Positions 44,795 through 64,000 are shown, counted from the first letter of the stretch. The stretch is 64,000 nt of DNA from Candidatus Daviesbacteria bacterium (GCA_028712705.1 JAQTPP010000002.1:43180-107179), one strand, 5' to 3'. Notes: generated by a model from the letters alone, not told the origin. Translations and numbers: made by a program.

Positions 44795-44801
44795 TATTAC
44801 G

Positions 44802-46784: not shown

Positions 46785-48435
46785 TAAATCGATAGATTTT
46801 GCTTGGTTGAATTGATATAATTTTATAGTTTGCTGCCAAGTCTGACTTGGTTGGTATATTTGACGCGCCGCGTTCGTCTAGTGGCCTAGGACGTTGGGTT
46901 TTCATCCCAGAAATCACGGGTTCGACTCCCGTACGCGGTACCAAATCCCGAGTTAGCGGGGCGGCGCAGAGCGCCGCCCATGGGTTTAGAGCTCCACAGC
47001 AAACTATTTTGTCGGTGAGCTTGAGGTTCGAGCCGAAGATTTTTTGTGCAAGTACCTTTTTTGCTTCCATGTCTTCCCCCCTTGCGGTATTAGCTGCGTT
47101 AGCAGCTTCCACTATCCAGTTTTTGAAAGGTTCGAGCCAAACATTTTGCGTTTGTTGAAAGCGGAGGATTTGTTCTTCTAACGTCTTCTTTTTAGATAAC
47201 AGTTCAGCTTTTTTGTTAAGGTAAGAATCTCTCTCAATATCCTGGTCAAGGTATGAATCAAGAAGACGTTGAAGTTTATCATTTAAACTTCTAATCTCCG
47301 CTTGTTTCTCCTCAACAAACGCATGGCAGGATTGGGCTACATTTTTTTCTTCTACAGATAATCTATCCAGCATTTTATCTGCCCAATCCTGACGCAAAGA
47401 AACTGATGCAATATTATCTGAAAGCTGTCGATCAAGTTCCTCCTGCCTAATAAAAGGTTGATTACATTTAACAGTTTTGGACTTTTTCGTACATCTGTAA
47501 TACAAATAGGTGGCATGATGATTTGTTTCCTTATAAAATTTTTCCTTAAATTCAGCCGTAATCATCATGCCGCACTGCCCGCAGCGAAAAAGTCCCAGGT
47601 ATGGTTTTAAAACAAGAGGTTTTTTCCAAGACCTGCTTCGTTTCCTCCATACCTCTTGTACGCTATCCCACAGTTTCTTTGAAATGATCGGCGTATGTTT
47701 TCCTTCGTGGATCTCGCCCCAATATTTAAAATGGCCATAGTAGAAAGGGTTAGTTAAGATCTGTTTAGTTACTCTATCAGCTTTCCATTCCTGTCCTTTT
47801 CTGGTCACTATGCCATTTTTAGCCAAAAAGTCCCGGATATCCATTATCCGGTAGTTACCGGTAGCAAACAGTTCAAAAGCCTTTTTAACAATAGTAGCCC
47901 GCTTTTTATCCAAAACTATAGTTTTGATAAGGAGGTCGTTAAGGTAGCCAACAGGAGGGATACCAGGATATATACCATTTCTGACTTTTTGGCGTAAACC
48001 TCTTTTGGTGTTTTCTGAAAGCGAGTCCACGAAGTATTTGCTTTGCCCAAATGCGATGGTGAGCATAAATTTTCCCTGGGGTGTAGCATCAAACCAGAAT
48101 TGAGGAAACTTAAGATACTTAATTTTACCGGTATCAATAAGATAAATAATTTTGCCGCCATCCACACTATTTCTCGCAAGTCTGTCAGGATGCCAAGCTA
48201 AAATTCCATCTGCTTCCCCGGCTTCAATCCTTTCGATCATACTGTTAAAAATAGGCCTGCCAGGGATTTTAGCTGTCTGCTTTTCAACAAGCTCTTCTAA
48301 GATAATAATACCTTCACGCTTGGCATACTCCCTTAGCTCTGTAATTTGAGCAACAATTGATAAAGCCTGCTTATCTTCTACGTCTGTAGACTTGCGGGCA
48401 TATAAGAACATTTTATTCGTATTTGTAATACTCAT
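46750..48435 (-). CDS. Large serine recombinase (resolvase/invertase catalytic domain, recombinase domain, zinc ribbon, coiled coil)
   Basis: N-terminus 'LYARKSTDVEDKQALSIVAQ' with catalytic Ser, 'DRLARN', a Cys-rich zinc ribbon ('CGQCG...C..C') and a C-terminal coiled coil. The ORF's 3' end reads antisense through IR-L and tRNA-Glu, so the real C-terminus is uncertain. Confidence 0.8.
   Translation of the reverse strand: MSITNTNKMFLYARKSTDVEDKQALSIVAQITELREYAKREGIIILEELVEKQTAKIPGRPIFNSMIERIEAGEADGILAWHPDRLARNSVDGGKIIYLIDTGKIKYLKFPQFWFDATPQGKFMLTIAFGQSKYFVDSLSENTKRGLRQKVRNGIYPGIPPVGYLNDLLIKTIVLDKKRATIVKKAFELFATGNYRIMDIRDFLAKNGIVTRKGQEWKADRVTKQILTNPFYYGHFKYWGEIHEGKHTPIISKKLWDSVQEVWRKRSRSWKKPLVLKPYLGLFRCGQCGMMITAEFKEKFYKETNHHATYLYYRCTKKSKTVKCNQPFIRQEELDRQLSDNIASVSLRQDWADKMLDRLSVEEKNVAQSCHAFVEEKQAEIRSLNDKLQRLLDSYLDQDIERDSYLNKKAELLSKKKTLEEQILRFQQTQNVWLEPFKNWIVEAANAANTARGEDMEAKKVLAQKIFGSNLKLTDKIVCCGALNPWAALCAAPLTRDLVPRTGVEPVISGMKTQRPRPLDERGASNIPTKSDLAANYKIISIQPSKIYRFIKSLEFCGILQ
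46867..46943 (+). tRNA. tRNA-Glu (anticodon TTC), CCA encoded
   Basis: Acceptor GCCGCGT/ACGCGGT, anticodon loop TTTTCAT, T-loop TTCGACT. Its last 20 nt are repeated at 63223-63242. Confidence 0.8.
46939..47019. repeat. 81-bp perfect inverted repeat, left copy (partner 48840-48920)
   Basis: Exact reverse complement verified by hand. Overlaps the last 5 nt (TACCA) of tRNA-Glu. Contains the GC hairpin GGCGGCGC-AGA-GCGCCGCC. Confidence 0.85.
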
Positions 48436-48486
48436 AAAATAACCTTGAACCCTGTCGGGTATAAAAAGAATTTTTGCGATAAATTA

Positions 48487-48640
48487 TTGGCAGTTTGTTC
48501 CATATCTTTTGTGAAAGCGGATTGACTCCGCTTTCACTTAAATGGCCACCTTGGTGATCTCAACCGGTGAAGGTTGTCCAAGATGGCCATTAAAAAACTC
48601 CACCGAATGTTGAGATCGCAAACATATTACAAACTGCCAA
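48487..48640. promoter_or_regulatory. Complex palindromic site upstream of the recombinase gene (candidate recombination site / regulatory region)
   Basis: 12-bp IR TTGGCAGTTTGT/ACAAACTGCCAA. It encloses a 10-bp-stem hairpin (48511-48537) and a ~50-bp imperfect palindrome AATGGCCACCTTGG...CCAAGATGGCCATT centred on AACCGGT (48541-48591). Confidence 0.4.
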
Positions 48641-48839
48641 AAGAAAATACAATATAGCAAAAATTCAATTGCGCATTTAGGCAAAGTTTCCCCACCTTAA
48701 GTGGGGAATTATTGATTTATATTTATATAAAAATAAGCAAAGCTTTTCTTTTTGCTTTGCAAAAAATAAAAAATCGCAAGGGGAATTAAAATTTCAAAAA
48801 AAGGTACTGCAATTAAAAGAATCTTGGGCTTTCTGTTTC

Positions 48840-48920
48840 CTCACCGACAAAATAGTTTGCTGTGGAGCTCTAAACCCATGGGCGGCGCTCTGCGCCGCCC
48901 CGCTAACTCGGGATTTGGTA
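48840..48920. repeat. 81-bp perfect inverted repeat, right copy
   Basis: Reverse complement of 46939-47019. Abuts and overlaps by 3 nt the 184-bp IR copy A. Confidence 0.85.
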
Positions 48921-49101
48921 GCGATCTATGATATCGCTCGGACTTATTTTATCAGGAATTATTAATCGGCGCATCGTATCGTTACGCTTCGGCCGGCTAA
49001 TCGCCGGCCTTGCTAATCACCGACGTATCGGTTCGCTCCGCTCAGGCCGCCTTCGGCGGCCTTCGCTTACCCCGATTCAATCGGGGCTTAAAACTAATCT
49101 T
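48918..49101. repeat. 184-bp perfect inverted repeat, copy A (partner 62667-62850); GC-rich with at least 4 internal hairpins
   Basis: Exact reverse-complement match verified by hand. Internal hairpins include GGCCGGC-TAATC-GCCGGCC, GGCCGCC-TTC-GGCGGCC, CCCGA-TTCAA-TCGGG and GCGAT-CTATGAT-ATCGC. Confidence 0.85.
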
Positions 49102-49215
49102 ATCTTTGGAAATTTTCGCATTTTCTATCCTATCTTTCTGTCTGTTTTATTTTGAGTAGCTTTTGTCTAAAGAGCACTTTTGTTACTCAAACAAAATGTC
49201 TGTTATACTTTATTT

Positions 49216-49980
49216 ATGTCTCAAAATTTTTATGATAAGGTAGCTAAAAAATTTGGTGGTTATGGATATGGTAATGGAAGGAAACCTCAGTATAAAAGCG
49301 AATACCCAGCGGGCGATCCTGAAAGGATTTTTAAAGAAAAGCTATTGGAGTTAAGTTCAAAAGATAAAACGGCACTGGATAGTGGGTGCGCTGACGGCAA
49401 ATTTACTCTTTCTATTGCTCCCTATTTCAAAAAAGTGTACGGGATTGATATTTCAAAGGAAAATTTGAATGTTGCAAATAACCACAGAGCTGATGAGAGA
49501 AGTAAAAATGTTGAATATTCTTTTCAAAACGCAAAACATACCTCATTTGAGGATTCTTTTTTTGATATAGCATATTGCAGGAGAGGACCTACTTTTTACA
49601 AGGAGTATCACAGAATTCTTAAAACCGGTGGATATTATCTTGAAATTGGAATAGGAGAGATGGATACAATAGAGCTAAAAAAGATATTTGGCAGAGGGCA
49701 AGGGTATGGAGAATGGGATAAGTCAAAATTGGATGAAAACTTAAAAGAAATAAAGAATCTTGGTTTTAAGGTTATTTTTGCAGAGAATTTTTATCCCTTT
49801 GAATACTATCCTTCTTCCGCGGAGTTTGATTTATTTCTACATCAGGTACCAATTTTTGAAGATTATGATTCGGAAAAAGACGAGGTATCACTGCAAAAGT
49901 ATGTTAAGAAATTTTCAGCCGATAAAGGTATTATGCTTTCGCGTCACCGGTTGGTAATGGTTGTACAAAAAGTCAGTTAG
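49216..49980 (+). CDS. Class I SAM-dependent methyltransferase (Methyltransf_11/25-like)
   Basis: Motif I 'LDSGCADGKFT'. No DPPY/NPPF motif, so probably not a DNA N6/N4 methyltransferase. Start taken at the internal Met of the 49180 ORF. Confidence 0.65.
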   Translation: MSQNFYDKVAKKFGGYGYGNGRKPQYKSEYPAGDPERIFKEKLLELSSKDKTALDSGCADGKFTLSIAPYFKKVYGIDISKENLNVANNHRADERSKNVEYSFQNAKHTSFEDSFFDIAYCRRGPTFYKEYHRILKTGGYYLEIGIGEMDTIELKKIFGRGQGYGEWDKSKLDENLKEIKNLGFKVIFAENFYPFEYYPSSAEFDLFLHQVPIFEDYDSEKDEVSLQKYVKKFSADKGIMLSRHRLVMVVQKVS

Positions 49981-49994
49981 ACGATTTTCTCGTT

Positions 49995-50750
49995 TTATTT
50001 TTCGTAAATTCTGATTGCTTGCCGATATTTACAAAAGTCACAGTCGCTACCACTATTGGGTAGTTTTTCAGATTTTAAACATTCTATAGCATCGAAAATA
50101 GTTCCTTCAACCCAGCTATCGTCTCCTTCGTATGGAAGAATTTTAATATCAAATTCCAGTTTGGCATCAAAAGCTGCTTTGTCTGTATTGCCATTGCAGT
50201 AAACAAAGTATCCGGTATTTGAAACTTTGAAACAGTTTTTCCTAAAAAGCCACTGGTATATTTCCATCTGCCTTTTATAGCCAATTTGCCACTCGGCATT
50301 GAGGGTAACTTCTTCATCTTTGGCAGTAGCCTTGTAGTCAACTATGATTAGTTCTTTTTTGGGATTAACCCAAAGATCATCAATTCCCCCTGTTACCAAG
50401 ACATTACTGTGATCTATTTTTAAAGTTATTCCACCCCGTAGAGAATCTCTCCACTCATCCAACTTTTCGTGAGCCATAGGGACTGCATCAACTTTGTAAT
50501 GTTTCATCAAAGGATGGGGAGTACCATTTGCACGATGAATATCAAACTCTTTTTTTAACAATTTATCTACAGCAGAATTAAGGGAGAAGGGATACCCAGG
50601 CGGTTGAGCAACTCCTAATTTTCTATCAAGGTAAAAACATCTTGGGCAATTTAAATATAAATCAATTTTTGACCTGCTCAAACGAAATAATTCTTTAGAA
50701 TTCTTATCATATAAATTTCTTTTCCTACTTGGATTGTAATATTTAGACAT
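49995..50750 (-). CDS. Cas4-like/RecB-family PD-(D/E)xK nuclease with 4-Cys cluster
   Basis: N-terminal 'CPRC'; 'GGIDDLWV' (D), 'IIVDYKATAK' (D-x-K), 'QMEIYQ' (QxxxY); C-terminal 'C-x11-C-x2-C'. Start at the Met 4 nt after the upstream gene's stop. Confidence 0.65.
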   Translation of the reverse strand: MSKYYNPSRKRNLYDKNSKELFRLSRSKIDLYLNCPRCFYLDRKLGVAQPPGYPFSLNSAVDKLLKKEFDIHRANGTPHPLMKHYKVDAVPMAHEKLDEWRDSLRGGITLKIDHSNVLVTGGIDDLWVNPKKELIIVDYKATAKDEEVTLNAEWQIGYKRQMEIYQWLFRKNCFKVSNTGYFVYCNGNTDKAAFDAKLEFDIKILPYEGDDSWVEGTIFDAIECLKSEKLPNSGSDCDFCKYRQAIRIYEK

Positions 50751-53583
50751 CTTTGAAGTTGTACTTTTGCTCTCTTTTTTGGAAAGCCTCTCTCCCTCCC
50801 TCAAGAATTTCGCAAACGTGCTGGCGGACACCTTTTCTATAAAGTATAGATTTTTCTTTTGATTCCGATAGTTCAAAAGCATTTTCTAGTGATCCAGATA
50901 CATATTCAAATGTATATTTTCTATTATCTCTACCTTTTTCTTGACCTTCCTGGTTTGCTACTATTATTTCTTCGGCATCAGCTCCAACAACTAGATTAGG
51001 GTTATGTGTTACAAAAATAATCTGTCTTCGCTTTTTCTTTTTCTTGATAAAAGATACCAAATCATCGTATACGGATCGATTATCCAAGTCATCTTCAGGT
51101 TGGTCTAAAAGTATAGGCCATTCTTCATTGCTTAGGTCAATTAAAATTCTTAATAACACAAGACCTTTTTTACCAGGAGACATTTTATCCAATGAATCAT
51201 TTTTATATGAAATTTTGAAATCAAGGTAAAAATAGTCATCCAAAATTTTTGTTACTGCTTCTTTGGTAGATTTATTCTTAACAGTTTTTATTTTTCCATC
51301 TATTACGCTTGTGAAAATAGCAGTTATAAAATCTATATGTTCGTTCGGATTGTATTGATATTCATACTCATCTTTCCACTCAGTACCGTCTATCAATCTT
51401 TTAATATCTACTTTATTTATACAACCATTTATTACTTCATCATTAAATCTTTGCTCATTGAATCCTACTAAAACGTTTAAAGAGATTCCGTCAAATCTCT
51501 TTTCATACTTTTTAAATTCGTCCTTTATTGAATTATAACTACCGAATATTTTTTTATAAACATCAATTAAGAATTCTTTCTCATTTTTATGGCTATTTTT
51601 CTTTGATTCTAGATTCTTTTTTTCAATAGCTATCCTATCTAGTTTACCCTGCTCAATCTTAATTTCTTCATTTTTCTTTTTGAGTTCATCTTGGAGTTTA
51701 ACCTTTGCCATTAGAGGTGTTAGATCTTTTCGGATCTCTTCCAAAAGCTTTTGCTTTTCAGAAACTCTAGTATCTATTAATCTAATTATTTTACCTACAG
51801 ATAATAATAAATTATTACGTACAGTTTCTATCTGATGAAATTCTTTTGTAAATTCATTTTTAATCTCCTCATCTTCTAGATATACTAATTGTTCGTTCTT
51901 TAAATTCTCAAAACTTTTTAATTGTTGATAAATATTTTGACTAAATAAATTTATATGCTTTTTATCTTCCGATAAAAGTGTAACCTTTCTTGTTGCTTCT
52001 TGCTCTTTGTTTAATAATTGTTCGTAATCTTTAATTTGTACAGTAGTTAAGCCAGACTTGATCTTGATTTCGTTAGCTTCTTTCTGCAGTTGCTCTAGAT
52101 ATTTCCTAATACCACTCTCCTCTCCAAGTTGCTTTAAAGTTTGTTCAATTTCTAAAATATCATCCCTGAACTGATATAGATTGTTTATGCTAATAGGAAT
52201 ATTTTTTGAAAGGCTTTTAATTTGCATAAGATCACTTTCGTGTTTTTCTTTCACCTCTTTATCTTGAAGTAGTACATCCATTACGAATCTATTTAAAGTT
52301 TCTCTACTTTTTATATTCCTTTCAGAAAGTTTATTTAAATAATTTTGTGGAATATATAAAATCTTTCTTTCATTTTCTTTAACTTGTGCACCTGTATTTT
52401 TGAGAAAAGTACTTGCTCCATCTGTCCAAACGACTTCGAAATTAAAGTTTGGATTTTCGTCGAATGTATAAGGTAAAACTAATTGTCCATCTGTAAATCT
52501 ACCACCAGCTTCAAGTGGATCAATGGTTTTAGCAATATAATAAAGTAATAAAGATTTACCTGTAGATTTACCGCCAATGATAGCTGTTAAGTTATTGTTA
52601 ATTTCTATTGGGTCTGATTGAAAATTTTCATTTCCGGTACTATCAATAAATCGTATTTTATCTATGAGAAAATATGTTTTTTTTGATTCTGGGCGTTCGT
52701 AACCAAAAGCTACTCTATCCCAAGGCTCAAATAAAATTTGTTTTAATCCTTCAAAAGTTTTATCTGCTTTTATCCAAGTTATATCTTTTTCCGTATTGCC
52801 TTGAGTATTAGTGAACTGTTTCCCTAAAAAATTATCAAGATCGGAGAATGAATGACAGTCTGATGTAGTGACAACAGCTTTAGGCTTTGACTGTATACTT
52901 TTATTTTCATAGCGATCAGTTTGTAAGTAATAATCTTTATTGTTAGCATTTCCGAAGAAAAAATCACAAAAGCTGTCAAATGAGTCAGCTAACTCCTTTT
53001 TAACATTAGAGCTAGGAACAGCCCTTAAGCTCCCCATACCTGAAGCCACCCCTACAATGAGATAAGGACAGTCATTTCCAAAACTATCCTCTAAAGTTTT
53101 TTTTAAATCTTCAATCGAAATACTTACCCGATCATATCCGCCACACCCTGTAATATCTGCATCAACACAATAACATTTTGATTCATCAGGTTGTTTGTTT
53201 TGAAGGGGTAATCTAGAAAGAAAGCTTTTTATTCTTGCAATCTCGCATTGAGGATCAAAAATCAGATGGCATTGTAATTGTTCTGTAGCTTGATTAAGAC
53301 TAATATCTAGTCTCAATTCAATATTTGGAAAGAAAACTTTCCCCTCAAAATCTGAATTACCTTGTATCTTTGAGATAAGTTTTTCATACCCATCTATGGA
53401 AAAGTAATCAGTGATACCAAATACTTCTACATCAGAATTCTTAATTCTTTCCAGAAAAAGATTCCAAACGTCATCAATAATACCGCCTCTTATTTTATAT
53501 TGGTCTTCTCTTTTAGTCTCAGGAGTATGAATCTGTAAATCCCACTTCCTCCATACAGAACCCTTTGGGTATAAATTGTTCAT
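50743..53583 (-). CDS. PHP-domain-fused SMC/Rad50-like ABC ATPase (Ppl/TrlF-like architecture)
   Basis: N-terminus 'KWDLQIHTPETK' His-rich PHP-like. Walker A 'GGKSTGKS'. About 350 aa of coiled-coil-rich insert. C-terminal 'ILLDQPEDDLD' Walker B/D-loop and 'FVTHNPN' typical of OLD/SMC-like ABC ATPases. Confidence 0.7.
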   Translation of the reverse strand: MNNLYPKGSVWRKWDLQIHTPETKREDQYKIRGGIIDDVWNLFLERIKNSDVEVFGITDYFSIDGYEKLISKIQGNSDFEGKVFFPNIELRLDISLNQATEQLQCHLIFDPQCEIARIKSFLSRLPLQNKQPDESKCYCVDADITGCGGYDRVSISIEDLKKTLEDSFGNDCPYLIVGVASGMGSLRAVPSSNVKKELADSFDSFCDFFFGNANNKDYYLQTDRYENKSIQSKPKAVVTTSDCHSFSDLDNFLGKQFTNTQGNTEKDITWIKADKTFEGLKQILFEPWDRVAFGYERPESKKTYFLIDKIRFIDSTGNENFQSDPIEINNNLTAIIGGKSTGKSLLLYYIAKTIDPLEAGGRFTDGQLVLPYTFDENPNFNFEVVWTDGASTFLKNTGAQVKENERKILYIPQNYLNKLSERNIKSRETLNRFVMDVLLQDKEVKEKHESDLMQIKSLSKNIPISINNLYQFRDDILEIEQTLKQLGEESGIRKYLEQLQKEANEIKIKSGLTTVQIKDYEQLLNKEQEATRKVTLLSEDKKHINLFSQNIYQQLKSFENLKNEQLVYLEDEEIKNEFTKEFHQIETVRNNLLLSVGKIIRLIDTRVSEKQKLLEEIRKDLTPLMAKVKLQDELKKKNEEIKIEQGKLDRIAIEKKNLESKKNSHKNEKEFLIDVYKKIFGSYNSIKDEFKKYEKRFDGISLNVLVGFNEQRFNDEVINGCINKVDIKRLIDGTEWKDEYEYQYNPNEHIDFITAIFTSVIDGKIKTVKNKSTKEAVTKILDDYFYLDFKISYKNDSLDKMSPGKKGLVLLRILIDLSNEEWPILLDQPEDDLDNRSVYDDLVSFIKKKKKRRQIIFVTHNPNLVVGADAEEIIVANQEGQEKGRDNRKYTFEYVSGSLENAFELSESKEKSILYRKGVRQHVCEILEGGREAFQKREQKYNFKDV

Positions 53584-53584
53584 A

Positions 53585-53668
53585 TTATTCTTTATTATTT
53601 TCTACAATCGCAATTTCTTCCTGCGTTAGGCCGTAGAGTTTATAGACAAAATCGTTAAATTCAAACAT
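53585..53668 (-). pseudogene. 27-codon ORF (MFEFNDFVYKLYGLTQEEIAIVENNKE) resembling a DNA methyltransferase C-terminal tail; possible gene remnant or coupled micro-ORF
   Basis: 'LYGLTxEEI' is a recurring C-terminal tail of N6-adenine methyltransferases/type IIG enzymes (recollection). Its stop sits 1 nt before the ATPase start codon. Confidence 0.25.
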
Positions 53669-53831
53669 ATTAAATAATCACTTGCGCATAAATTTTTCTT
53701 CAAATATGTCATCAAAAACGGTTTCATTACTTTTACGGTAAATGGCATACCAATAATTTTTATCCATTTATCATGAGTTAGTAAGTTTCCGTATAATAGA
53801 CATTAAAATTTTGCTTATTAGTTTCCATATA

Positions 53832-56800
53832 TTATGAATGATACTGTCTCGTTCCTCTACAGTAAGGGAAACGGGAACAACCATAAAATCTACCATACCT
53901 TCCGGTTCTCAATATCATACCCGAACCGCATTTTGGACAATTTTTATCGTTAGAAATTAGAGCATCATTAACATCTTCGGCAGGCTTTTCAACTAATGTA
54001 TAACCCTTACAATGCATACAAAATCGTCCATATCCGGTTGTCAAATCAGGATCCCTAAAGTCTTTATATTCTCTAACTTCCTTACATTTTGGACACTCCT
54101 TCATTGAACCATTTTGTAAATTTTCTACCGTTTCGTGTATATGGCTTATGACATTATTTTTTCCCACCCCATTTTTAACTAAACTAATTATTCTTTCGTT
54201 AAGAGTTGCAATAGGATTGTTGCCAATGTTGAATTTATTAATTCTTAAAAATCTGTAACCGTAACTCTCTAATACTTTTTCTCTATAAATATCTGATTCG
54301 GAATAATAATCTTGGTAGTTGTATTCATTTATTTCATCGGTATCCTTAAAGTGCTCTTTAAAACCGTCATATTCCATGACGATTTTGTGTTCTTTATGTG
54401 TTTCGTCCTTATATACAAGTAAGAAATCAACCTTATATTTTGGATGATTGTAGGTTCTATCGAGTTGTTTCAAATACTTTCCAAGCTCAAACTGTGGAAT
54501 AAACTCAATGCTATCCTTGTGTTTTGTCCAAAACTCCGTTTGATAAAACCAATTCATGACTTCAGGCTCCATCTTAGACTTCTTATCAGCTTCGGTAACA
54601 CTGTGCTCCTTCTTAGATTCGTTAAGAACAAAATAATAGTGTCTTAAGGCTTCACCTATTGAACCGGTATAATTTTCAATAGGTTTACTTAACACAAAAT
54701 GCATACATTCTTTGGCACGGCTTAAACCAACGTTCAATCTTTGAGCTTTTATTCTTCCTTCTTCTTCAACATCAACATCATTTAAATCTTTAATAAACAC
54801 ACCCCAAAGATGATCATCTTCTTCCATCGCAACCATGGAATAAAATACGAGATCTCTTTCTTCGCCTTGGCAGGTGTCAAAAGTCATTATTTTTAATTTA
54901 AAGGTATCGTAAAAGTAATCTTTTTCCGGTAATTGACTAATTTTTTCAACGAGTAATTTCTGTTGATTGGTGTGGGGCGTTATAATACCAACGCTTTGAT
55001 TAGACCCAGACTCTTTGAGTTTTTTCAACTCCGAAATAATATATTTGACTTCCAATTCATTAGAATTTTGCAACAATTCCGTTTTCCCATCATGTTTGAT
55101 AAACGAAAATTTCAGTACTTCATCAATCGACTTCCCTCGAATTTTCATTACCTGTAGGCTGTCCTGATAAAAGTATTTATTTGAATAGGAAATAATCTCT
55201 TTGTAACCTCTAAAATATTTTAAAAGTTGTATATCGTAGTTACTAATAAAATCAAAAAACTCAAGAATTGAGGTTTTAATATTAAACTTTTTGAGTTTCT
55301 CTAATTTCACACCTTCATTTGAAATATTTTTAACAAAGCTGTCTTCAAGTTGACTTAAATATTTCCTATTTTCTTCTGTGCGAGCTTGCGCAGTCTTAAC
55401 GTTACTAAATTGTTTTCTATCTCCCAAAACTAACACCTTTTTAGCTCTCAGAAGTGCAGGAAAGGCCTGAGCTATGCTTACCTGTGAAGCCTCATCTATA
55501 ATTACTAAATCAAATATTTCAGGTTCAAGAGGAATATACTCAGCATAATCTCTAATTCCAGCCAAAATGCAGGGAAAAGCCTCTTTAAGCTTTAGAAATT
55601 CATTTTGTGGAAACTTCATTTTGCTTTGAATTATTTTTTTCAAAGCGGTTGCGGTAGCTTTGTAATTAGTCCAAAAATCAATCAGCCTATTGTCCATGAC
55701 ATGAGTCATTTGTACAGTAAGCAAGCTTTCAATGTCTTTCTTTTGACTATCGTAGTTGAGATCAGGAATGTCTTGAAAATCCTTTTCAATCTTTTGGTTC
55801 AAACTCAAATATCTGATTAATTTATCGAAATCCAAATCAGATATTTTTGTGAAACTATTATCAGTAAGAGTTTTAAATGACGAAAGATTAACTTTTAGTT
55901 TTTTAGCCGTAAGTGGATACTTATCTATATTTGAGCCAAGATATTTTATATCATCATTTAAAGCTATTAAGTCATTTAAAGATGATAGAGTGCTTTCATT
56001 TTTTATGGCTTGATGAAAAAAGTGTAAGTAGTCGAGTTTACTAATAAATTTGTCATCAAGCTTGCCAAATATTTCATCCGCATAATTATAGATGTTCGTT
56101 GCTTCGTCAAGTTTCTTTAGGTTTTGTTGTGGTTCGATTGAAGATGAATATTTAAAATTTTTTCTAAATTCAGTATTTAGCCGCCCTATCTGATCTTTTT
56201 TGAATAGATAGCCGAATAGCCAATTTTTCTCCTCTTTATATTTTTGTATGGACGAGTTTAGGATTTTTAACCTAGAAGAATCGAAGCTTTCGAACTCTAG
56301 AATTGAATTTACTTTATCTCCATATACTTCACGCAGTTTAGCGACAGATGAAGAAAGAGAGCTTAAAAACTGTAAATATTTTTGAAAATCAGATGTATCT
56401 TTGAAGTCATCAAGAGAAAAATCCAATAACTCAAATATTTTTAGTGCCTTTTCATTTTCATCAGTATTAATTACTAAATTAGCTTTAAGTGTTAAAAATA
56501 TCTTCCGGAATTCTTCAAGATCTATCGCAGACTCCTGCTGTTTAACCACTTCTTCTAAATCAATGGGGAAACCATTGTTTGTATGGTAGCTTTCAAGATC
56601 AAAGTATTCGTGAATCTCTTTTATATCGATATCCTTATAAGTCAATATTTCTGCTTCTATGTCCTCCTTTAATGACTTCTGAGATTTATCAATATTCTGT
56701 TCTAGATCCTTATAGTTTTTCTTTACTGCAAGAAAATTATTTGTAATAGCTTTAATTGATATTGGACTTAGTATCTTTGCATAAGCATTACCTATTTTCC

Positions 56801-58430
56801 CCAATCTTAAAACAGGATTTTGAAAATTATCGTCTGTCCTAACTTTGTTCATCGTTTCCGTTATCTTATCCTCTACAACATCAAGAGCCTCTTTCTTATC
56901 AGACAGAACTAAAACAGATTGGTTTTTAAGTATTGCGTTGAAAACAACTGCGGTTATTGTATGGCTTTTACCTGTTCCAGGAGGACCTTGCACAATAATA
57001 TATTTACAATCATCTTGCTTTATAGCTGATAGTATTTGTAGTTGTTCTTCGTTTAATGGAATCGGGCTTTGAAATACAAGTTTATCCTGTACTTCTTGAT
57101 CATTCCAATCTTCTTGAATTTCTATATTGAAACTTTTTGGGTCTTTCTGAATAAAGTCATCAATTAACTTGTTAAAAGCACCAGCTAAAATATTATCCTC
57201 GGAAGAAAGAAGCTTTAAAATTTCTTCGTAATCGTTTACCAACGCTTCATCAGATTTATCGAATAAGGTTATATAGCATGAATTAGACACCCTAACAAGA
57301 AAACTCTTCGCAACCTGCGGGTCCGTTTTATCTATATCAATATTGTTGTCTAATTCAAAAAAGTTAGTGATCTCATTCAGGATTTCGCTTGTTAATTCCC
57401 TGAAATCATCTTGATGTTGTGCTAGATAGATAATTCTTTCAGCAATGGTTTTTAGATTTCCCTTTTTATCTTTTTCTTGATTATATTGCTGTGAAATGTA
57501 TTCAAGTGCTTTCTTGTTTATGTAGACTTGAGAATCAAATTCTATATTCAATAGATCATTTTGTTTTTCTACAGTAAACGGAATATAGAAAATTGGATAC
57601 TTTGCCTTTTCAAAAGTGATATCGCAAAAATATAGATAAAATTCCTGTTTGTCTAAAATGGTACGGTTCCGCTCCATCTCATATACTTCTGCAAATAAAT
57701 CTCCGACACGGAAACTTTCAAAAAACGACAAAATATTAGTTTTGGCATTATCAATGTCAAAAACATCCTTTAATTGCTTAGGAATGTCTACCTTTTCCTT
57801 TGCCAACAGGAGCTTAATAACTTCTGAAATTTTATTTTCAAGCAAGGAGGTGAGAACAGAGGTAAGTTCCTCTTCCATTAAATAGATACTGTCCTCATCT
57901 CCTAAATTTAAGTTCTCGAGTGGTTTTTCTAAATAATTAATAAATGGTAGTACTAATTTTGATTGAATGACTTTTGAAGTTGCTTCGAGGGCTGTACTTA
58001 ACGCTTGGTCATATTCTTTTTTATACAGAGTAGACGATTTCTCAATCTCTCCACCAATTTGTTCAAGCATCTGAGAAATTTGCTTATTCGTTATTTTTGT
58101 AAGAGATAGCTCGATAAGATCAAGAAGATTTTGGGGTATATTTGTACGGTAGACACCTTTTTGGATCGCATTTAAAGCACTTTTGTCAAAAGAATGATTA
58201 ATTGCTTTCCAAACAAGATTAGAAAAAGCCGGATATTTATTAAGGTTTAAACCAATTAGTAGATTATTACCACTTCGTAATTGAACACTCCGTTTTGGGT
58301 TTCTTCTTTTATGGAAATCTGTTTCCAGAAAATCCATAAAGTATTTAGCAACTTCGCGAATAAAAGTAAGGCTCTTGGAGAGACTAAAAACTTTTTCGTC
58401 TTTATCAGTCTCATTATCAATTAATGCCAT
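53832..58430 (-). CDS. Giant SF1 (Upf1/DNA2-like) helicase fused to a DUF559/Vsr-like PD-(D/E)xK endonuclease and two topoisomerase-type zinc ribbons (Hhe-like architecture)
   Basis: Walker A 'GPPGTGKSHT'; motif II 'IIDEASQ'; 'VLVLGDRKQ'; C-terminal 'FLLVYKDETHKEHKIVMEYDG...REKVLESYGYRFLRI' REase-like; 'CPKCGSGMILRTGRYGRFYGCSRFPYCRGT' zf-C4_Topoisom. N-terminal ~470 aa are DUF4011-like. Confidence 0.8.
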   Translation of the reverse strand: MALIDNETDKDEKVFSLSKSLTFIREVAKYFMDFLETDFHKRRNPKRSVQLRSGNNLLIGLNLNKYPAFSNLVWKAINHSFDKSALNAIQKGVYRTNIPQNLLDLIELSLTKITNKQISQMLEQIGGEIEKSSTLYKKEYDQALSTALEATSKVIQSKLVLPFINYLEKPLENLNLGDEDSIYLMEEELTSVLTSLLENKISEVIKLLLAKEKVDIPKQLKDVFDIDNAKTNILSFFESFRVGDLFAEVYEMERNRTILDKQEFYLYFCDITFEKAKYPIFYIPFTVEKQNDLLNIEFDSQVYINKKALEYISQQYNQEKDKKGNLKTIAERIIYLAQHQDDFRELTSEILNEITNFFELDNNIDIDKTDPQVAKSFLVRVSNSCYITLFDKSDEALVNDYEEILKLLSSEDNILAGAFNKLIDDFIQKDPKSFNIEIQEDWNDQEVQDKLVFQSPIPLNEEQLQILSAIKQDDCKYIIVQGPPGTGKSHTITAVVFNAILKNQSVLVLSDKKEALDVVEDKITETMNKVRTDDNFQNPVLRLGKIGNAYAKILSPISIKAITNNFLAVKKNYKDLEQNIDKSQKSLKEDIEAEILTYKDIDIKEIHEYFDLESYHTNNGFPIDLEEVVKQQESAIDLEEFRKIFLTLKANLVINTDENEKALKIFELLDFSLDDFKDTSDFQKYLQFLSSLSSSVAKLREVYGDKVNSILEFESFDSSRLKILNSSIQKYKEEKNWLFGYLFKKDQIGRLNTEFRKNFKYSSSIEPQQNLKKLDEATNIYNYADEIFGKLDDKFISKLDYLHFFHQAIKNESTLSSLNDLIALNDDIKYLGSNIDKYPLTAKKLKVNLSSFKTLTDNSFTKISDLDFDKLIRYLSLNQKIEKDFQDIPDLNYDSQKKDIESLLTVQMTHVMDNRLIDFWTNYKATATALKKIIQSKMKFPQNEFLKLKEAFPCILAGIRDYAEYIPLEPEIFDLVIIDEASQVSIAQAFPALLRAKKVLVLGDRKQFSNVKTAQARTEENRKYLSQLEDSFVKNISNEGVKLEKLKKFNIKTSILEFFDFISNYDIQLLKYFRGYKEIISYSNKYFYQDSLQVMKIRGKSIDEVLKFSFIKHDGKTELLQNSNELEVKYIISELKKLKESGSNQSVGIITPHTNQQKLLVEKISQLPEKDYFYDTFKLKIMTFDTCQGEERDLVFYSMVAMEEDDHLWGVFIKDLNDVDVEEEGRIKAQRLNVGLSRAKECMHFVLSKPIENYTGSIGEALRHYYFVLNESKKEHSVTEADKKSKMEPEVMNWFYQTEFWTKHKDSIEFIPQFELGKYLKQLDRTYNHPKYKVDFLLVYKDETHKEHKIVMEYDGFKEHFKDTDEINEYNYQDYYSESDIYREKVLESYGYRFLRINKFNIGNNPIATLNERIISLVKNGVGKNNVISHIHETVENLQNGSMKECPKCKEVREYKDFRDPDLTTGYGRFCMHCKGYTLVEKPAEDVNDALISNDKNCPKCGSGMILRTGRYGRFYGCSRFPYCRGTRQYHS

Positions 58431-58491
58431 AGTTTAGATCAATTCTAGCAAAATTCTTTGATTTAAGATAGGAAGAAATTAAACTTGAGAT

Positions 58492-59004
58492 TTACAGACC
58501 CCAGATGCCTCTTTTATTTTTCTTGGCCTCATCTTGAGCTTTAAGTAATAACTCCCGGTAAATAAATGGTTTCTTTTTTTGGTAAACTACAACTTGTGCC
58601 ATGCCAAGTCTGGCAAGTTTCATAGAGACATTTTTGCCATCAACAATTACATAGGCAAGTATCCTGCCAAATTTGTCTCCTTTGTAATTGTCATATTCCA
58701 GTTTTATTTCTTTCCCTTCAACCAATTTTCTGTTTGCTTCAGTGGCCTCTTTTTCAAAAGGCTCATTAGTTTCAGGGGAAGTTATACCAACATACCTGAC
58801 AATTGCCCCGCTGTGCAAAACAATGGTATCTCCGTCAACAATCCGTTCAACTTTTGCTTCCTTTGGAAAATAACTGATATTCTGGGTCTGGTATTTACCT
58901 GTATTTTCAATTAGGTCTTTAATCTTTTTCTCATAAGGAGTATTTTTAAGATGAGGCAATATATCTTCCAGTAAATTTTCTGAAACGGTAATTAGTTTAG
59001 CCAT
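58492..59004 (-). CDS. Staphylococcal nuclease (SNase/thermonuclease)-like protein
   Basis: 'RIVDGDTIVL...VRYVGITSPE' and 'GKEIKLEYD...DKFGRILAYV' SNase OB-fold catalytic motifs. The ORF-track N-terminal extension overlapping the upstream gene was rejected. Confidence 0.65.
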   Translation of the reverse strand: MAKLITVSENLLEDILPHLKNTPYEKKIKDLIENTGKYQTQNISYFPKEAKVERIVDGDTIVLHSGAIVRYVGITSPETNEPFEKEATEANRKLVEGKEIKLEYDNYKGDKFGRILAYVIVDGKNVSMKLARLGMAQVVVYQKKKPFIYRELLLKAQDEAKKNKRGIWGL

Positions 59005-59044
59005 ATTTATGGATCCCGTATCAAGTACGGGATGACAAGGTAGA

Positions 59045-60265
59045 TTAGTTATGCTCAATAAAAGCTTTGTAGCCAACAAGCTTTTTGTTATCCCCTGAAC
59101 TGGAATAGATATTTTTAACTCCAAAGGTGAGATATAACTCATCTTTGGCATAAGTGATGGTAGTGCCATTGGGGTCTGATGAATTGAAGGTTTGCTTGAA
59201 ACCGGAATTTGTAAGCTCTCTGGTATAGTAATCAATAAAGTCTTGAGGAATAGTTTCCAGTTGTGATGATTCAAGGTAGACACCTTCCTGCTCAATTCTT
59301 CTTTTACCTGAAGTAAAAAGTAAGGTTTTGCTTTGGGTTAGTTCCCAAGTAAGGCCGGAGAATAAAGCAGGCAAGATAGAAGGATTAGAGGGGGTAGAAG
59401 GAGAAGAGGGATTAGGGGCAACAGGTAGCGTGGGAGTGGGGGTTGGTTTAGTTTCAAAAGAAACAACTTCGGAGACTTCTATTAAATTAGGGGTTGGGGT
59501 CATGTTGCCTTTAACTTCTACCTTCATGTTTTCAAAATTAGCTAAATTAACATTTTGTGATTTAGGTATTAGAGTCCACATGGTTTTATTTTTATCATTT
59601 GCCTGCAGGTAATATCCTTTGGTAGACTTTTGTATTGTCCCCTGGGCAGTAATTGACCGGTGCAGGATTGGAGAAAAATTGGGGAATAGTTTACCTACAG
59701 CATAGTTCAGGCCTGATTTAAATCCTACTCCAAAACCTCCAATTCCCACCATTATTACAATCAATGCCAGGACAGGAATGCGCAGAGTAATCATTTGTCT
59801 TTTGAGCAGTTTAGCTAAAAATTTCTTGAGATATGTTACAGGATTGGTCAGAAAGAAGCCAAAAAGAGGAGGGTCTTCTTTTTCAGAGGGTTTGGTATTT
59901 TGGTTAATTTCTATGATAGGAGGCAGAATTGAGGAAGGATTAGAGGGAACAGAAGGATTATCCGCCTTCGCCGAGGCTTCGGTGGACGAGGTAGGATGTT
60001 CAGATGTAATGAAGTGACCATGTTCGTCTCTTGGTTTGTTTTGGGCTGCTTCAGAATAATGTTCGTGTTTTAAAGCATCTGGTCCTTCGGCTTCACTCAG
60101 GATCTTCGAGGTATTCGGAGTGTTCAGGGGAGGAGTTTGTGGCGTAGGCGGGATAGGATTAGGTTGGGGTTGTGTCTGGTAAGGACTGTTTGGGTCTACA
60201 GGATTAGTATGGGGGTTAAAGTTAGAGCCAAAAGGTTGAGGCGGATCTTTGGGCAGATTATCCAT
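59045..60265 (-). CDS. Proline-rich membrane protein (low-complexity P/T/N-rich segments, one TM), unknown function
   Basis: Composition and one hydrophobic helix 'ITLRIPVLALIVIMVGIGGFGVGF'. Confidence 0.45.
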   Translation of the reverse strand: MDNLPKDPPQPFGSNFNPHTNPVDPNSPYQTQPQPNPIPPTPQTPPLNTPNTSKILSEAEGPDALKHEHYSEAAQNKPRDEHGHFITSEHPTSSTEASAKADNPSVPSNPSSILPPIIEINQNTKPSEKEDPPLFGFFLTNPVTYLKKFLAKLLKRQMITLRIPVLALIVIMVGIGGFGVGFKSGLNYAVGKLFPNFSPILHRSITAQGTIQKSTKGYYLQANDKNKTMWTLIPKSQNVNLANFENMKVEVKGNMTPTPNLIEVSEVVSFETKPTPTPTLPVAPNPSSPSTPSNPSILPALFSGLTWELTQSKTLLFTSGKRRIEQEGVYLESSQLETIPQDFIDYYTRELTNSGFKQTFNSSDPNGTTITYAKDELYLTFGVKNIYSSSGDNKKLVGYKAFIEHN

Positions 60266-60311
60266 ATCTTCAGTATACCCTCAAGATAATTTCAGGTGCA
60301 AGCTAAAGATT

Positions 60312-60884
60312 CTATTTAACTGCAATAGATATTAATTTTTCGTGATACTCCGGCTTTTTTGAAGAATCAACTCCATATAAAACTACTTCAATAATATCAA
60401 ATACCCAATTGACTTTTTTTAGCCTGGTACTTAATTCCAAGAGAGAGGCTTTAAATGCTTCTTGAGCTTTTGGATCTCCTACCCAAGCCACAGTAACATG
60501 AGGATGAAATGGTAAGTTATTATCAGCAGCGCAGTAAATAGATAGACTTTTTGAAATTAACTTATTAAATTCCTGTAATTGCGGCGGATATTGAACATCT
60601 GAAAATAGTATTCTTGGCTTATCTTCTCCAAAATACCCAAAACCGCTAACCTTTAATTTAGTTCCTTTCAGTATTTCTAAATACTTTTTGACATCTTCTG
60701 CTATTCTTGACAAAGCGGATTGAGATTGTTTATCTAAATAACAAACGGTGATATGAGGAGTTTTAGGGTGGGTTGTTTTAAATAAAGGACTGATTTGAGA
60801 AATATCGGTCTGTAAGTCTTCAAAATCTTGTTGATACTTCTGAGGCAGGGGGATTCCAATAAAATATGAACTATAATCTTTCAT
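60312..60884 (-). CDS. 2H phosphoesterase, LigT/ThpR-like (2'-5' RNA ligase family)
   Basis: Two HxT/S motifs: 'HITVCYL' and 'HPHVTVAW'. Confidence 0.75.
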   Translation of the reverse strand: MKDYSSYFIGIPLPQKYQQDFEDLQTDISQISPLFKTTHPKTPHITVCYLDKQSQSALSRIAEDVKKYLEILKGTKLKVSGFGYFGEDKPRILFSDVQYPPQLQEFNKLISKSLSIYCAADNNLPFHPHVTVAWVGDPKAQEAFKASLLELSTRLKKVNWVFDIIEVVLYGVDSSKKPEYHEKLISIAVK

Positions 60885-60941
60885 GAAAGCAGTATATCAA
60901 ATTTTGACTTTTTGAGCTTATAGGTTTACAATCCGATTGTT

Positions 60942-61886
60942 ATGTCAGCTGAAGCACCGAAAAATACTGGTATAACTGCTCCTAATACACAGCAAGAACC
61001 ACAAGGCTGTCTTCCCGGATTTCTAAGAAGATTATTTGCAACTCCACAAGAAGTACAACAAATACCAAAAATTATACAGCCACCATCAGGCTTAGAAGGC
61101 TTTGCTGATCAGCTACAGCAAGGAATAGATGGATATTTTGCATCAGTAAGGCAGCAAGATTTAGAGAGAAGAAATGCTGAAGCTGCAAGGATGGCAAATA
61201 AGGCATTAGAAAAGATAAAGACTGAACAACTACAAAGAGACCGGCTGGAGCAAGAACAATCAAGAATTAGGGCAGCAGTCACAGAGGCATCTAAGACCTT
61301 ACAGGATTTCCAGATAGCCGAAAGATTGAGATATATACAAGATAAAATATGGGGAGGAAAAGGGAATATAGCAGCTGCAGAACCTGCATTTAATATTGAT
61401 GGAAGGTATAACCGCCTAGGCGGACTTAGGTTAGAATATGAATGCCCATATTACTACAGAACGGTAACAGAAGAATGGTCAGATGCAAAAAATTATGCTT
61501 CCCGAAAATATGAACGAAGGTGGAAGTATGCTTCAGCTACATTTGGAACATGTCTGAGTGTAGATGTATTAGCCTGTCGACAGGACTCCCAAGTGGAGGC
61601 AAGAAAGCTCCTTGAAGTATCAGCAATATATGATTATACATTTAGAGTAGGTGTAGGTCGTTTCCCTTTTGGGGGTGACACATTCTTAGGGAAAGTTACT
61701 ATCCCGATAGACCAACCAGATAGCAAAACCCTTTTAGGCGGGGCTTTAACTCAAGAAACAGTTCATAGAGTTGCTATTGGATGGATACCGTCGAAACTAG
61801 ATGAACAAGCACTGGAAGAACGGTCACGTCTCCCTCATTGGGAAAAATGGATTTATGTACCCCCAGTGTATTCAGGTGGTGACTAA
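60942..61886 (+). CDS. Hypothetical protein (Gln/Glu-rich coiled-coil N-terminal half)
   Basis: 314-aa ORF with composition distinct from its neighbours; no motif recognised. Confidence 0.35.
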   Translation: MSAEAPKNTGITAPNTQQEPQGCLPGFLRRLFATPQEVQQIPKIIQPPSGLEGFADQLQQGIDGYFASVRQQDLERRNAEAARMANKALEKIKTEQLQRDRLEQEQSRIRAAVTEASKTLQDFQIAERLRYIQDKIWGGKGNIAAAEPAFNIDGRYNRLGGLRLEYECPYYYRTVTEEWSDAKNYASRKYERRWKYASATFGTCLSVDVLACRQDSQVEARKLLEVSAIYDYTFRVGVGRFPFGGDTFLGKVTIPIDQPDSKTLLGGALTQETVHRVAIGWIPSKLDEQALEERSRLPHWEKWIYVPPVYSGGD

Positions 61887-62666
61887 TATTTATTATTTTA
61901 ATTTGCGGCTTCCGCCGCCCCCGCAAAGTTAAGGTATAAAGACCCAAAAAGAGGGCAGCACCATTAGAAGGAATGTTAGGAATGTAGATAAAAATATAAT
62001 TGGGTGCTGCCCGATATACGCGAACCCGCCAAATTTTACTTCGGGATTTTAAAAGGGCGGGTGAGCCATCGGAATCAGTTGTGAGTGTCCCGTCTCGAGA
62101 CGGGACCGAACGGCATGGAAACAGAACAGGGTAAAAATTGCGGCGGGGGCGAAAGCGGAATACCCCCGCAACGGCAGGCGGTACTTCATAACCAATTTAA
62201 GGTAGTCAAGGAGCAGACCCTAAAGGGTCTCCGATCTATAACAGAATAAATAAAGGAATCAATATAAAATAAAATTTCGCGGCTCCGCAGACGGGTTAGA
62301 TACTGTATGAGCAAAATTGAAACGTACCATATAGGCGAGTCGCCCCCTAGGGCGACCTCTCGCCCAAAAGCGGGGGTGCCGCCACAACTATTTGGGTGGG
62401 TGGGTTGCTAGGAGTATGTACCAGCTCCACAACTTACCACAACACCACAATTTGTGGGCTGCTGAAGCAGGTAACCACAATTGTGGTCCACAATAAATTA
62501 TTGTGGTGATTAGATTGTTACAACAGGCTAATTGTGGTACTTATAAAAATAATGCAACTTTGTAAATGGTTGTGGGAGTGGGACTAGTTGCCCGCGGATG
62601 GGTGGGGTGGGCAAGGGCAACATTTTCTGTTTCCCCCTTTCCCCTCCTGCGAAAATTTCCAAAAAA
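61887..62666. other. GC-rich ORF-free structured region: stacked hairpins, CCACAA/TTGTGG palindromic iterons, G-tract (G4-like) motifs; candidate ncRNA and/or origin/partition/operator array
   Basis: No ORF of 60 aa or longer in any frame across ~640 bp. Perfect 20-bp palindrome GTCCCGTCTCGAGACGGGAC (62088-62107). GCGGGGG-[GC-GAAA-GC...]-CCCCCGC. Three CCACAA-N(0-5)-TTGTGG palindromes at 62475-62510 plus half-sites. GGGTGGGTGGG (62396-62406) and GGGTGGGGTGGGCAAGGGCAA (62600-62620). Confidence 0.5.
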
Positions 62667-62850
62667 AAGATTAGTTTTAAGCCCCGATTGAATCGGGGTA
62701 AGCGAAGGCCGCCGAAGGCGGCCTGAGCGGAGCGAACCGATACGTCGGTGATTAGCAAGGCCGGCGATTAGCCGGCCGAAGCGTAACGATACGATGCGCC
62801 GATTAATAATTCCTGATAAAATAAGTCCGAGCGATATCATAGATCGCTAC
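62667..62850. repeat. 184-bp perfect inverted repeat, copy B
   Basis: Exact reverse complement of 48918-49101. Confidence 0.85.
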
Positions 62851-62866
62851 ACTTCGGCTACGCTCA

Positions 62867-63190
62867 GTGCAGGCCTATATGGAACGATCAAAAGAATGGT
62901 TTGTATATATGCTTCTTTGCGATCAGAAAACTTTCTATATTGGTATTACCACTGAGTTAGTTAACAGATTTTCTCAACATAAAAACAAATTATCTAAAGC
63001 AACAGTAGAGTTTTCTGATCTAAAACTAGTTTATTGTGAAAAGTATCTATCGGAACATGAAGCTGCTCTTAGGGAGAAACAGCTTAAGGGATGGAGCCAT
63101 GCAAAGAAGCAAAAGTTAGTAGACGGGATTCTTGGTAGGAATGTATGTACTGAGTATGCAGAAGTTCTGCTAAAACGAGAGAACTTGTGA
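62867..63190 (+). CDS. Small GIY-YIG nuclease superfamily protein (COG2827-like)
   Basis: 'FYIGIT', 'R..QH', conserved Glu and Asn. Lies between IR184-B and the 20-bp tRNA-Glu 3' repeat. Confidence 0.65.
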   Translation: MQAYMERSKEWFVYMLLCDQKTFYIGITTELVNRFSQHKNKLSKATVEFSDLKLVYCEKYLSEHEAALREKQLKGWSHAKKQKLVDGILGRNVCTEYAEVLLKRENL

Positions 63191-63222
63191 GTTTACCCTG
63201 AACGAGCGAAGCGAGCTGAAGG

Positions 63223-63242
63223 GACTCCCGTACGCGGTACCA
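63223..63242. repeat. 20-bp direct repeat of the tRNA-Glu 3' end (candidate attR)
   Basis: GACTCCCGTACGCGGTACCA is identical to 46924-46943. Confidence 0.7.
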
Positions 63243-63306
63243 TAATAAGAGTTTAGTTTGTTACAATAATCTAAACAAAGAATAATGGGTTTACATTGTT
63301 AAAACA

Positions 63307-63807: not shown

Positions 63808-64000
63808 AAGTGAGATCCGACTTAATAAAGTTCCCTCTCCACATAAATATTTAGCACCATAACTGCCATCATATCTTTCAGCTTGCTCAAGGTAACAATG
63901 ATCAAAACTGGATGTTGATATTGAATAAGGAAATCTTTTCCACCAGAGGACATAGGCTCCACTAAGTTTATCCCCGTCAATTATTGCCTGCAGATATTCA

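Follow-up and report, generated by a model that had tools for sequence, protein, structure and literature searches.

According to the received pattern, tRNA genes are the targets of tyrosine integrases. Serine integrases, for their part, usually act on sites which have only a short core, around a 2-bp crossover, in common. Here we describe a locus of Candidatus Daviesbacteria bacterium in which the gene of a large serine recombinase (LSR) adjoins the 3' end of a tRNA-Glu gene. The locus lies within a stretch of 64,000 nucleotides (GCA_028712705.1, JAQTPP010000002.1:43180-107179), referred to below as the window, in which all positions are counted unless another locus is named. A preliminary description of this DNA proposed a single tRNA-Glu island of 16.3 kb, ending in a 20-bp att-like direct repeat that would be unusual for a serine recombinase. 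Our analysis makes it highly probable that two independent mobile insertions, i.e. a small GIY-YIG cassette and an LSR element, are instead stacked on the tRNA-Glu 3' end (Table 1).

Known serine integrases (phiC31, Bxb1, A118/LI and SprA of SPbeta) resemble the LSR of this locus in their Resolvase, Recombinase and zinc-ribbon domains and their catalytic serine, in the few bases common to attP and attB, and in a recognition motif placed 4 bp nearer the centre on the bacterial half-site (PMC11722253). The Patescibacteria LSR differs from them in that it targets a tRNA 3' end through a mimic of the T-loop, in that its attP lies inside the last codons of the integrase gene, so that integration rewrites the C-terminus, and in that the elements keep a second, inverted attP upstream of the LSR gene. 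An attP located within the integrase gene is also found in archaeal tyrosine integrases of the SSV1 type, where integration splits the gene in two. In both cases the integrase open reading frame (ORF) contains the att site and is altered on integration; here, however, the exchange concerns only the final 14 codons of a serine integrase, an intact spare of this end being retained in inverted orientation.

Tycheposons and classical tRNA islands offer the other obvious comparison, as they too carry cargo (including defence-type genes), have a tRNA-proximal recombinase, and pile up as successive insertions with partial tRNA copies. Tycheposons mostly (910 of 937 elements; 10.1101/2020.12.28.424599) use tyrosine integrases, and their direct repeats of the tRNA end measure tens of bases, whereas the LSR leaves only a 3-bp repeat in this locus and the long repeat is that of another element.

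Table 1. Features of the tRNA-Glu locus, in order of their position in the window
Feature	Position	Strand	Remarks
LSR ORF as integrated, 561 aa	46750-48435	-	residues 1-499 recombinase; 500-561 read-through of antisense tRNA-Glu and flank
tRNA-Glu(UUC), target gene	46867-46943	+	ARAGORN; Rfam RF00005, 59 bits
attL crossover core TAC	46939-46941	+	last acceptor base, discriminator A73, C74
LSR element	46942-62850		15,909 bp; ends set by the intact internal attP copy
Arm a (P' half of attP)	46942-47019	-	also the last ~26 LSR codons
LSR upstream (promoter) region	48436-48839	-	parts conserved (blastn 78-90% to L001-L008 and L093)
Internal attP, intact, inverted relative to LSR	48840-49120	+	a' 48840-48917; GTA 48918-48920; b 48921-49120
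Low-GC cargo block	49121-58480	-	GC 0.32
Methyltransferase	49180-49980	+	Pfam
PD-(D/E)XK/Cas4-like nuclease	49995-50882	-	Pfam, PADLOC
Ppl-like ATPase, 946 aa	50743-53583	-	Pfam, PADLOC
SF1 helicase, 1532 aa, with REase-like and Topo Zn-ribbon ends	53832-58430	-	Pfam, PADLOC
Host-like-GC cargo block	58481-62647		GC 0.40
SNase	58492-59295	-	Pfam
Proline-rich protein, 406 aa	59045-60265	-	
LigT	60312-60884	-	
314-aa protein	60942-61886	+	
Hairpin-rich non-coding DNA	61887-62647		
attR	62648-62850	-	arm b' (P half) 62648-62847; core TAC 62848-62850
GIY-YIG cassette, 372 bp, outside the LSR element	62851-63222	+	left end ACTTCGGCTACGCTCAGTGCAGG; right end ...GAGCTGAAGG
GIY-YIG ORF, 103-107 aa	62867/62879-63190	+	PF01541, E=7.5e-15, residues 11-81
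Orphan tRNA-Glu 3'-end copy	63223-63242	+	half T-loop, T-stem 3' strand, acceptor 3' strand, ACCA

Attachment sites and borders of the LSR element

Along the plus strand, the locus consists of the tRNA, arm a, the LSR gene (on the minus strand), its promoter region, the joined arms a'b, the cargo, arm b', the GIY-YIG gene and the 20-nt tRNA fragment. The arms belong to two inverted repeats, I2 (46936-47019 / 48840-48923; 84 nt, 99% identity) and I1 (48918-49120 / 62648-62850; 203 nt, 99% identity, two mismatches). Upstream of the LSR gene they are combined in an intact internal attP, whose a' half matches the tRNA-side junction and whose b half matches the far junction at 62850. Written on the LSR-sense strand, with a slash at the junction, attL reads ...GGGATTTGGTA/CCGCGTACGG, the internal attP ...GGGATTTGGTA/GCGATCTATG and attR ...GCCGAAGTGTA/GCGATCTATG. 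Only GTA is common to all three sites (TAC of the plus strand at 46939-46941 and 62848-62850), and the attB reconstructed from the window is GGGTTCGACTCCCGTACGCGGTACACTTCGGCTACGCTCAGTGC. The final bases of tRNA-Glu, CA (46942-46943), would now come from the inserted LSR element.

The exact recurrence of the last 20 nt of tRNA-Glu (GACTCCCGTACGCGGTACCA), on which the preliminary description was built, is genuine: exactly two copies exist (46924-46943 and 63223-63242), their identity being limited to these 20 nt, and none was obtained in 100 shuffles, even with three mismatches permitted. The LSR, identified by the Pfam domains Resolvase, Recombinase and Zn_ribbon_recom, is likewise the sole recombinase between the repeats, and no phage-integrase domain occurs among the interval ORFs of at least 90 aa. 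Both facts would suit a single island of 16.3 kb (46944-63222), integrated by the LSR via a 20-bp identity between attP and tRNA and including the GIY-YIG gene. We nevertheless give such an island next to no credence, because the element's own intact attP places the end of its P arm at 62850, not at 63222. A 20-nt junction would, moreover, give the LSR the end ...VPSARFARSG followed by a stop, unlike the conserved tail of its family, and the core is only 3-6 nt long in 17 other two-ended loci. The GIY-YIG gene is missing from the other LSR loci, apart from weak matches in L057 and L070 that lie far from the element ends, and its close homologues recur at tRNA ends without an LSR.

The right end of the LSR element (62848-62850) is therefore 372 bp short of the repeat; the cassette intervenes, and the tRNA-end direct repeat does not coincide with the junctions of the element. 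What stands of the island first proposed is an LSR-borne element integrated at the tRNA 3' end, whereas the 20-bp repeat as its att site is not supported, and neither is the extent of 16.3 kb. With the borders corrected in this way, and with only a 3-bp core common to the LSR junctions, the apparent anomaly of a serine integrase leaving a 20-bp duplication disappears, and the LSR conforms to the usual behaviour of such enzymes.

Two other interpretations of the inverted arms were considered and rejected. The internal attP is not an assembly artefact, as the b arms differ at two positions and the same layout is present in dozens of independent assemblies. Neither are a and a' the ends of a minimal LSR 'insertion sequence', since the DNA beyond a' is a conserved P arm and not target.

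The LSR protein has a Resolvase domain (PF00239, E=4.9e-20, residues 10-154), a Recombinase domain (DBD1; PF07508, E=1.6e-16) and a zinc ribbon (DBD2; PF13408, E=7.8e-9), the last two both above curated cut-offs. The motif R14-K15-S16, which contains the catalytic Ser16, is invariant across 42 aligned homologues (alignment A1), and residues ~350-440 look heptad-rich, as would befit the directionality-controlling coiled coil that serine integrases carry within DBD2. The protein is very distant from LSRs of solved structure (best PDB E-values 1e-6 to 1e-5). An exact look-up of the 561-aa sequence returned no record, PADLOC gave no match for the LSR or the GIY-YIG protein, and viral contigs yielded only distant LSRs (at most 43% identity), which were uninformative.

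The LSR ORF has no stop before the tRNA and continues through it in antisense (...PLTRDLV/PRTGVEPVISGMKTQRPRPLDERG...). Beyond a conserved ...IFGSNL...WAALRAAPTSR.. block, 120 homologues fall into two C-terminus classes: ~80% run into antisense-tRNA peptides (GIEP, GFEP, GVEP and the like), and ~12% have a conserved C-terminal tail, ..(I/L)Y..AR(T)YF..N and a stop. It is this native C-terminus that the internal attP encodes (...CGALNPWAALCAAPLTRDLV/AIYDIARTYFIRNY, then a stop). One copy of the tail, AIYDIARTYFIRNY with its stop, lies on the plus strand at 48924-48965, directly after the inverted copy of the last 26 LSR codons, and a second is found within attR (62832-62790, minus strand). Integration would turn a native LSR of 513 aa into the read-through form of 561 aa, with loss of the 14-residue tail. 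The arginine codons of the tail are CGA or AGA only, so its conservation reflects, at least in part, a constraint at the DNA level.

Arms a and a' each contain a perfect 9-bp GC palindrome, GGGCGGCGC-AGA-GCGCCGCCC (46958-46981 and 48878-48901). The first copy lies 15 nt past the tRNA. The palindrome is also coding (WAALCAAP), and the protein motif, WAAL(R/C)AAP, is conserved throughout the Microgenomates members of the family; in addition, it may serve to terminate the tRNA transcript or to contact the recombinase.

The LSR family and its tRNA targets

At E <= 1e-10, the LSR family comprises more than 7,800 proteins. Our survey covered 80 genome loci from many Patescibacteria lineages, out of ~600 genome matches. 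An antisense tRNA is located at the LSR 3' end in 54 of the 59 loci with enough downstream sequence, and 28 anticodon types are represented. In 38 of the 44 loci with enough upstream sequence, the LSR 3' end is repeated there in inverted orientation; these copies are 33-219 nt long, mostly 96-100% identical, and usually reach 5 nt into the tRNA. The closest relative, from Curtissbacteria (81% identity), likewise occupies tRNA-Glu(UUC) and carries an intact attP, in inverted orientation, upstream of its LSR gene.

The 17 other two-ended loci have one and the same structure, i.e. outside / b - cargo - b'a - promoter - LSR - a' / tRNA. Their cores (TGGTG, TGGAG, GTG, GAG, CTG, GTA) correspond to N73-C74, and their cargo, of 0.9-13.5 kb, is unrelated between elements; examples among the relatives are a hydrolase, a GNAT acetyltransferase, an alanine racemase, ProRS and defence genes. 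Judging from the sequences compared, the three-junction layout is a trait of the family, not a local accident.

The LSR gene contains the attP within its last ~40 codons. The P arm of this site, b, holds a GCTCGAACC-like sequence, which represents the codons of the ARTY(F) tail and at the same time an antisense T-loop motif; the T-loop look-alike of this outer arm is GCTCGGAC in the window and GCTCGAAC in relatives. Measured from the core, the TCGAA-type motif of the P arm is farther out than the TCGAA of the tRNA arm, by exactly 4 bp in 16 of 17 loci and by 5 bp in the remaining one. As structures of serine integrases show, an attB half-site has its DBD2 motif 4-5 bp nearer the centre than an attP half-site has, and it is by this offset that attP and attB are told apart (PMC11722253). 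The spacing supports the view that b is a P-type half-site and that the tRNA T-arm acts as a B-type one. The LSR family would then be specialised on tRNA 3' ends through a T-loop copied into attP, and such a mimic, combined with the P/B spacing, would enable one family to use almost any tRNA.

The same inverted sites could also be taken to mean that the LSR is mainly a DNA invertase, a/a' and b/b' being the inversion sites by which a resident locus that does not move undergoes phase variation. Indeed, both modules are flanked by inverted sites with a common crossover core, and the LSR module lies in the opposite orientation beside the tRNA in five contigs (L018, L025, L032, L049 and L053), all of which, however, break off within the repeat and may have been misassembled. 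A resident switch is hard to reconcile with the 28 tRNA types occupied and with cargo that is unrelated between genomes; in addition, the outer junctions show attP-type/attB-type half-site spacing, and removal of the element restores a junction which is conserved elsewhere (see below). We consider a mere switch very improbable and favour the integration of a mobile element, in addition to which inversion may occur.

Literature searches, which were incomplete in coverage, revealed no description of the LSR/inverted-attP architecture, and the tRNA-targeting LSR family of Patescibacteria is apparently undescribed. As each element holds an intact attP copy, attP and attB of hundreds of LSRs should be readable from single genomes, which would aid integrase prospecting. 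In hosts with few known mobile elements, they also seem to act as carriers of individual genes of a housekeeping-like or defence kind.

Many LSR contigs have an end in the inverted repeats, no more than a few hundred bases from the gene; among them are L011, L012, L015, L016, L018-L020, L022, L024, L025, L029, L032, L049 and L053. The inverted repeats break short-read assemblies, and the elements are probably under-counted or mis-joined in metagenome-assembled genomes.

The GIY-YIG cassette and the 20-nt repeat

Between attR and the repeat, the 372-bp stretch contains a single gene, coding for the GIY-YIG protein, which has one Pfam domain and no recognisable DNA-binding domain. The ends of this cassette are imperfect inverted repeats (CTTCGGC / GC(C/T)GAAG). 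Homologues of the protein, 60-88% identical, are common in Patescibacteria, many of them on very short contigs. We examined seven independent homologue loci, L097 and L098 being a single locus seen twice, and found the full cassette unit, of ~0.35-0.4 kb, in five: L095, L096, L097/L098, L099 (at tRNA-Glu(UUC)) and L101 (at tRNA-Glu(CUC)). L100 and L102 have rearranged variants. With the window included, tRNA-Glu is concerned in three of six cases.

In each of the five full loci, the tRNA 3' end is followed by a conserved junction, .../ACTTCGGC(3-4 nt)CTCAGTGCA, and by a GIY-YIG ORF of ~100 aa; on the right side, ...GAAG(G/T) precedes a 12-18-nt copy of the 3' end of the same tRNA. No LSR was found near any of the five. 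The preliminary description had itself named a tRNA-fragment duplication tied to the GIY-YIG gene as another possible source of the 20-bp repeat, and the homologous cassettes bear this alternative out. The sequence beyond the orphan copy in the window is presumably the original tRNA-Glu trailer.

As a surrogate for an empty-site test, the LSR element (46942-62850) was deleted in silico. The deletion recreates ...GCGGTAC/ACTTCGGCTACGCTCAGTGCA, i.e. the tRNA/ACTTCGGC junction of the cassette, which occurs without interruption in L095-L097 and, at tRNA-Glu, in L099 and L101. Since a conserved tRNA/cassette junction is restored, the cassette would have arrived first and the LSR element second.

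Alternatively, the 20-nt repeat might be the attR scar of an older tyrosine-integrase island, which has decayed to its GIY-YIG gene and was followed by the LSR element in the tRNA-proximal position. The LSR element does sit tRNA-proximal to the fragment, and partial tRNA copies between successive elements are documented for tRNA-targeting islands (10.1101/2020.12.28.424599). However, an identical compact unit is present in five independent genomes at different tRNAs, and independent decay should not yield identical minimal units with inverted-repeat ends, which makes a decayed island improbable. We therefore prefer to regard the GIY-YIG cassette as an insertion in its own right.

In its GIY-YIG domain, and as a small, self-contained cassette recurring at conserved RNA genes, this unit is reminiscent of the GIY-YIG homing endonuclease genes (T4 seg, I-TevI family). 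It differs from them in its ~103-aa product, which has no recognisable counterpart of the separate DNA-binding domain that gives homing endonucleases their long-site specificity, in its inverted-repeat ends and in the 12-20-nt tRNA-end copy behind it; to our knowledge, no homing endonuclease gene combines inverted-repeat ends with a copy of a tRNA 3' end. The searches of the literature mentioned above, with the same incomplete coverage, returned no description of GIY-YIG/tRNA-end cassettes either. The cassette constitutes a second, separate lead, i.e. a compact nuclease unit at tRNA ends by which the tRNA is kept whole.

The cassette-bearing tRNAs of L096 (1161-1363) and L097 (2710-2902) hold a group I intron (RF00028, 78 and 69 bits, respectively), and both are missed by ARAGORN. 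In the window, an Rfam scan of positions 44000-64000 gave the tRNA as the sole match; neither the repeat arms nor the GC-rich region was assigned to a family.

Proposed course of integration, putative free forms and cargo

We propose that the 372-bp GIY-YIG cassette first landed directly after the tRNA body, leaving the tRNA complete and an 18-20-nt copy of its end beyond the insertion. A circular LSR element would subsequently have recombined its attP with a site composed of the tRNA T-arm and acceptor and the first bases of the cassette, strand exchange taking place within TAC, i.e. the acceptor end, A73 and C74. The integrated element would provide the tRNA with its final CA, completing CCA, and with the GC hairpin, and the native 14-residue tail of the LSR would be swapped for the antisense-tRNA read-through. 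In the free circle, the LSR module and the cargo module would be set apart by two attPs in inverted orientation.

In contigs L093 and L094, the LSR gene continues into its native tail and neither attP copy is disrupted, which suggests that these sequences represent a form, free or excised, that has two attPs in inverted orientation. No closed circle was found among the short native-tail contigs, L103 and L104 having no terminal overlap. The two attP copies of L103 (2270-2355 and 3967-4094) have an identical 86-nt inner arm and different outer (T-loop-mimic) arms, a pattern that hints at module exchange between elements at the crossover core.

The sequences themselves show how the junctions are built, how short the core is, the spacing of P and B half-sites, the targeting of tRNAs throughout the family, the variable cargo and the independent cassette; the order of events, excision and any role of the spare attP are inferred. 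Several points weigh against two stacked insertions. It is only its recurrence that points to the mobility of the GIY-YIG cassette. No directionality factor, which serine integrases require for excision, was identified for the LSR, and the minimal elements, of 3.0-3.3 kb, contain no conserved second gene and so no conserved candidate for one. The reconstructed empty site, CTCCCGTACGCGGTACACTTCGGC, had no match in metagenome contigs, nor did these contain relatives of the flanking 197-aa protein, an orphan whose homologue search found its source contig only; the empty-site test was unsuccessful because no relatives of the locus were found. The 'free' forms L093 and L094, as well as the contigs with the LSR module in opposite orientation, could in part be due to assembly ambiguity at the inverted repeats. 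Finally, the cargo may be composite and include captured host DNA, as one third of it has host-like GC content and carries LigT. This protein (2',5' RNA ligase family) is ~75% identical to a chromosomal LigT of the Curtissbacteria locus L001 (19378-20031), which is encoded ~8 kb past tRNA-Glu, outside the LSR element of that locus.

The yeast 2-micron plasmid, which resides in a eukaryotic host, has the FLP tyrosine recombinase, inverted FRT repeats and a replication origin. By analogy, the proposed free circle of the LSR element would also possess two inverted repeats with recombinase sites and two unique segments, one of them coding for the recombinase; it would differ in that no replication gene is seen in the minimal LSR elements and in that inversion is conjectural here. 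Candidate reasons for the retention of a spare inverted attP are autoregulation, restoration of the native end by flipping, 2-micron-like inversion and cassette exchange.

With considerable doubt, we raise the further suggestion that these elements form a distinct class of serine integrases which need no separate directionality factor. If this were true, the tail swap could give the integrated and the free state two different enzymes, and the spare attP could permit flipping of the LSR module or a 2-micron-like inversion of the free circle. Either event would return the LSR to its native form or lead to an exchange of LSR and cargo modules among elements. As far as the account in PMC11722253 (its reference 49) goes, an element at the very C-terminus of SprA has been reported as a directionality toggle.

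The nucleases initially noted in the interval, i.e. the PD-(D/E)XK/Cas4-like, SNase and GIY-YIG proteins, are all present, the first two as cargo of the LSR element. The nuclease and helicase/ATPase genes of the cargo gave weak PADLOC matches to defence families such as Ppl, Mko/Hhe-like and Cas4-like. The atypical composition ascribed to the interval applies to a part of it, with a GC of 0.32 at 49121-58480 against ~0.40 in the flanks, and the 'GC-rich repeats' reported there correspond to the 203-nt inverted repeat and the hairpin-rich non-coding DNA (61887-62647).

Within this non-coding DNA, the GC-rich hairpins of 61887-62420 fold significantly better than shuffled sequences on both strands (z = -3.4 and -3.2); the segment had no Rfam match and resembled nothing in any fetched locus. 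Just inside the b' arm, 93 bp (62445-62537) hold 6 of the 12 CCACAAT/ATTGTGG motifs of the window, a cluster for which Rfam gave no family. Some of the motifs pair into the palindrome CCACAATTGTGG, and the cluster could represent iteron-like or regulator-binding sites.

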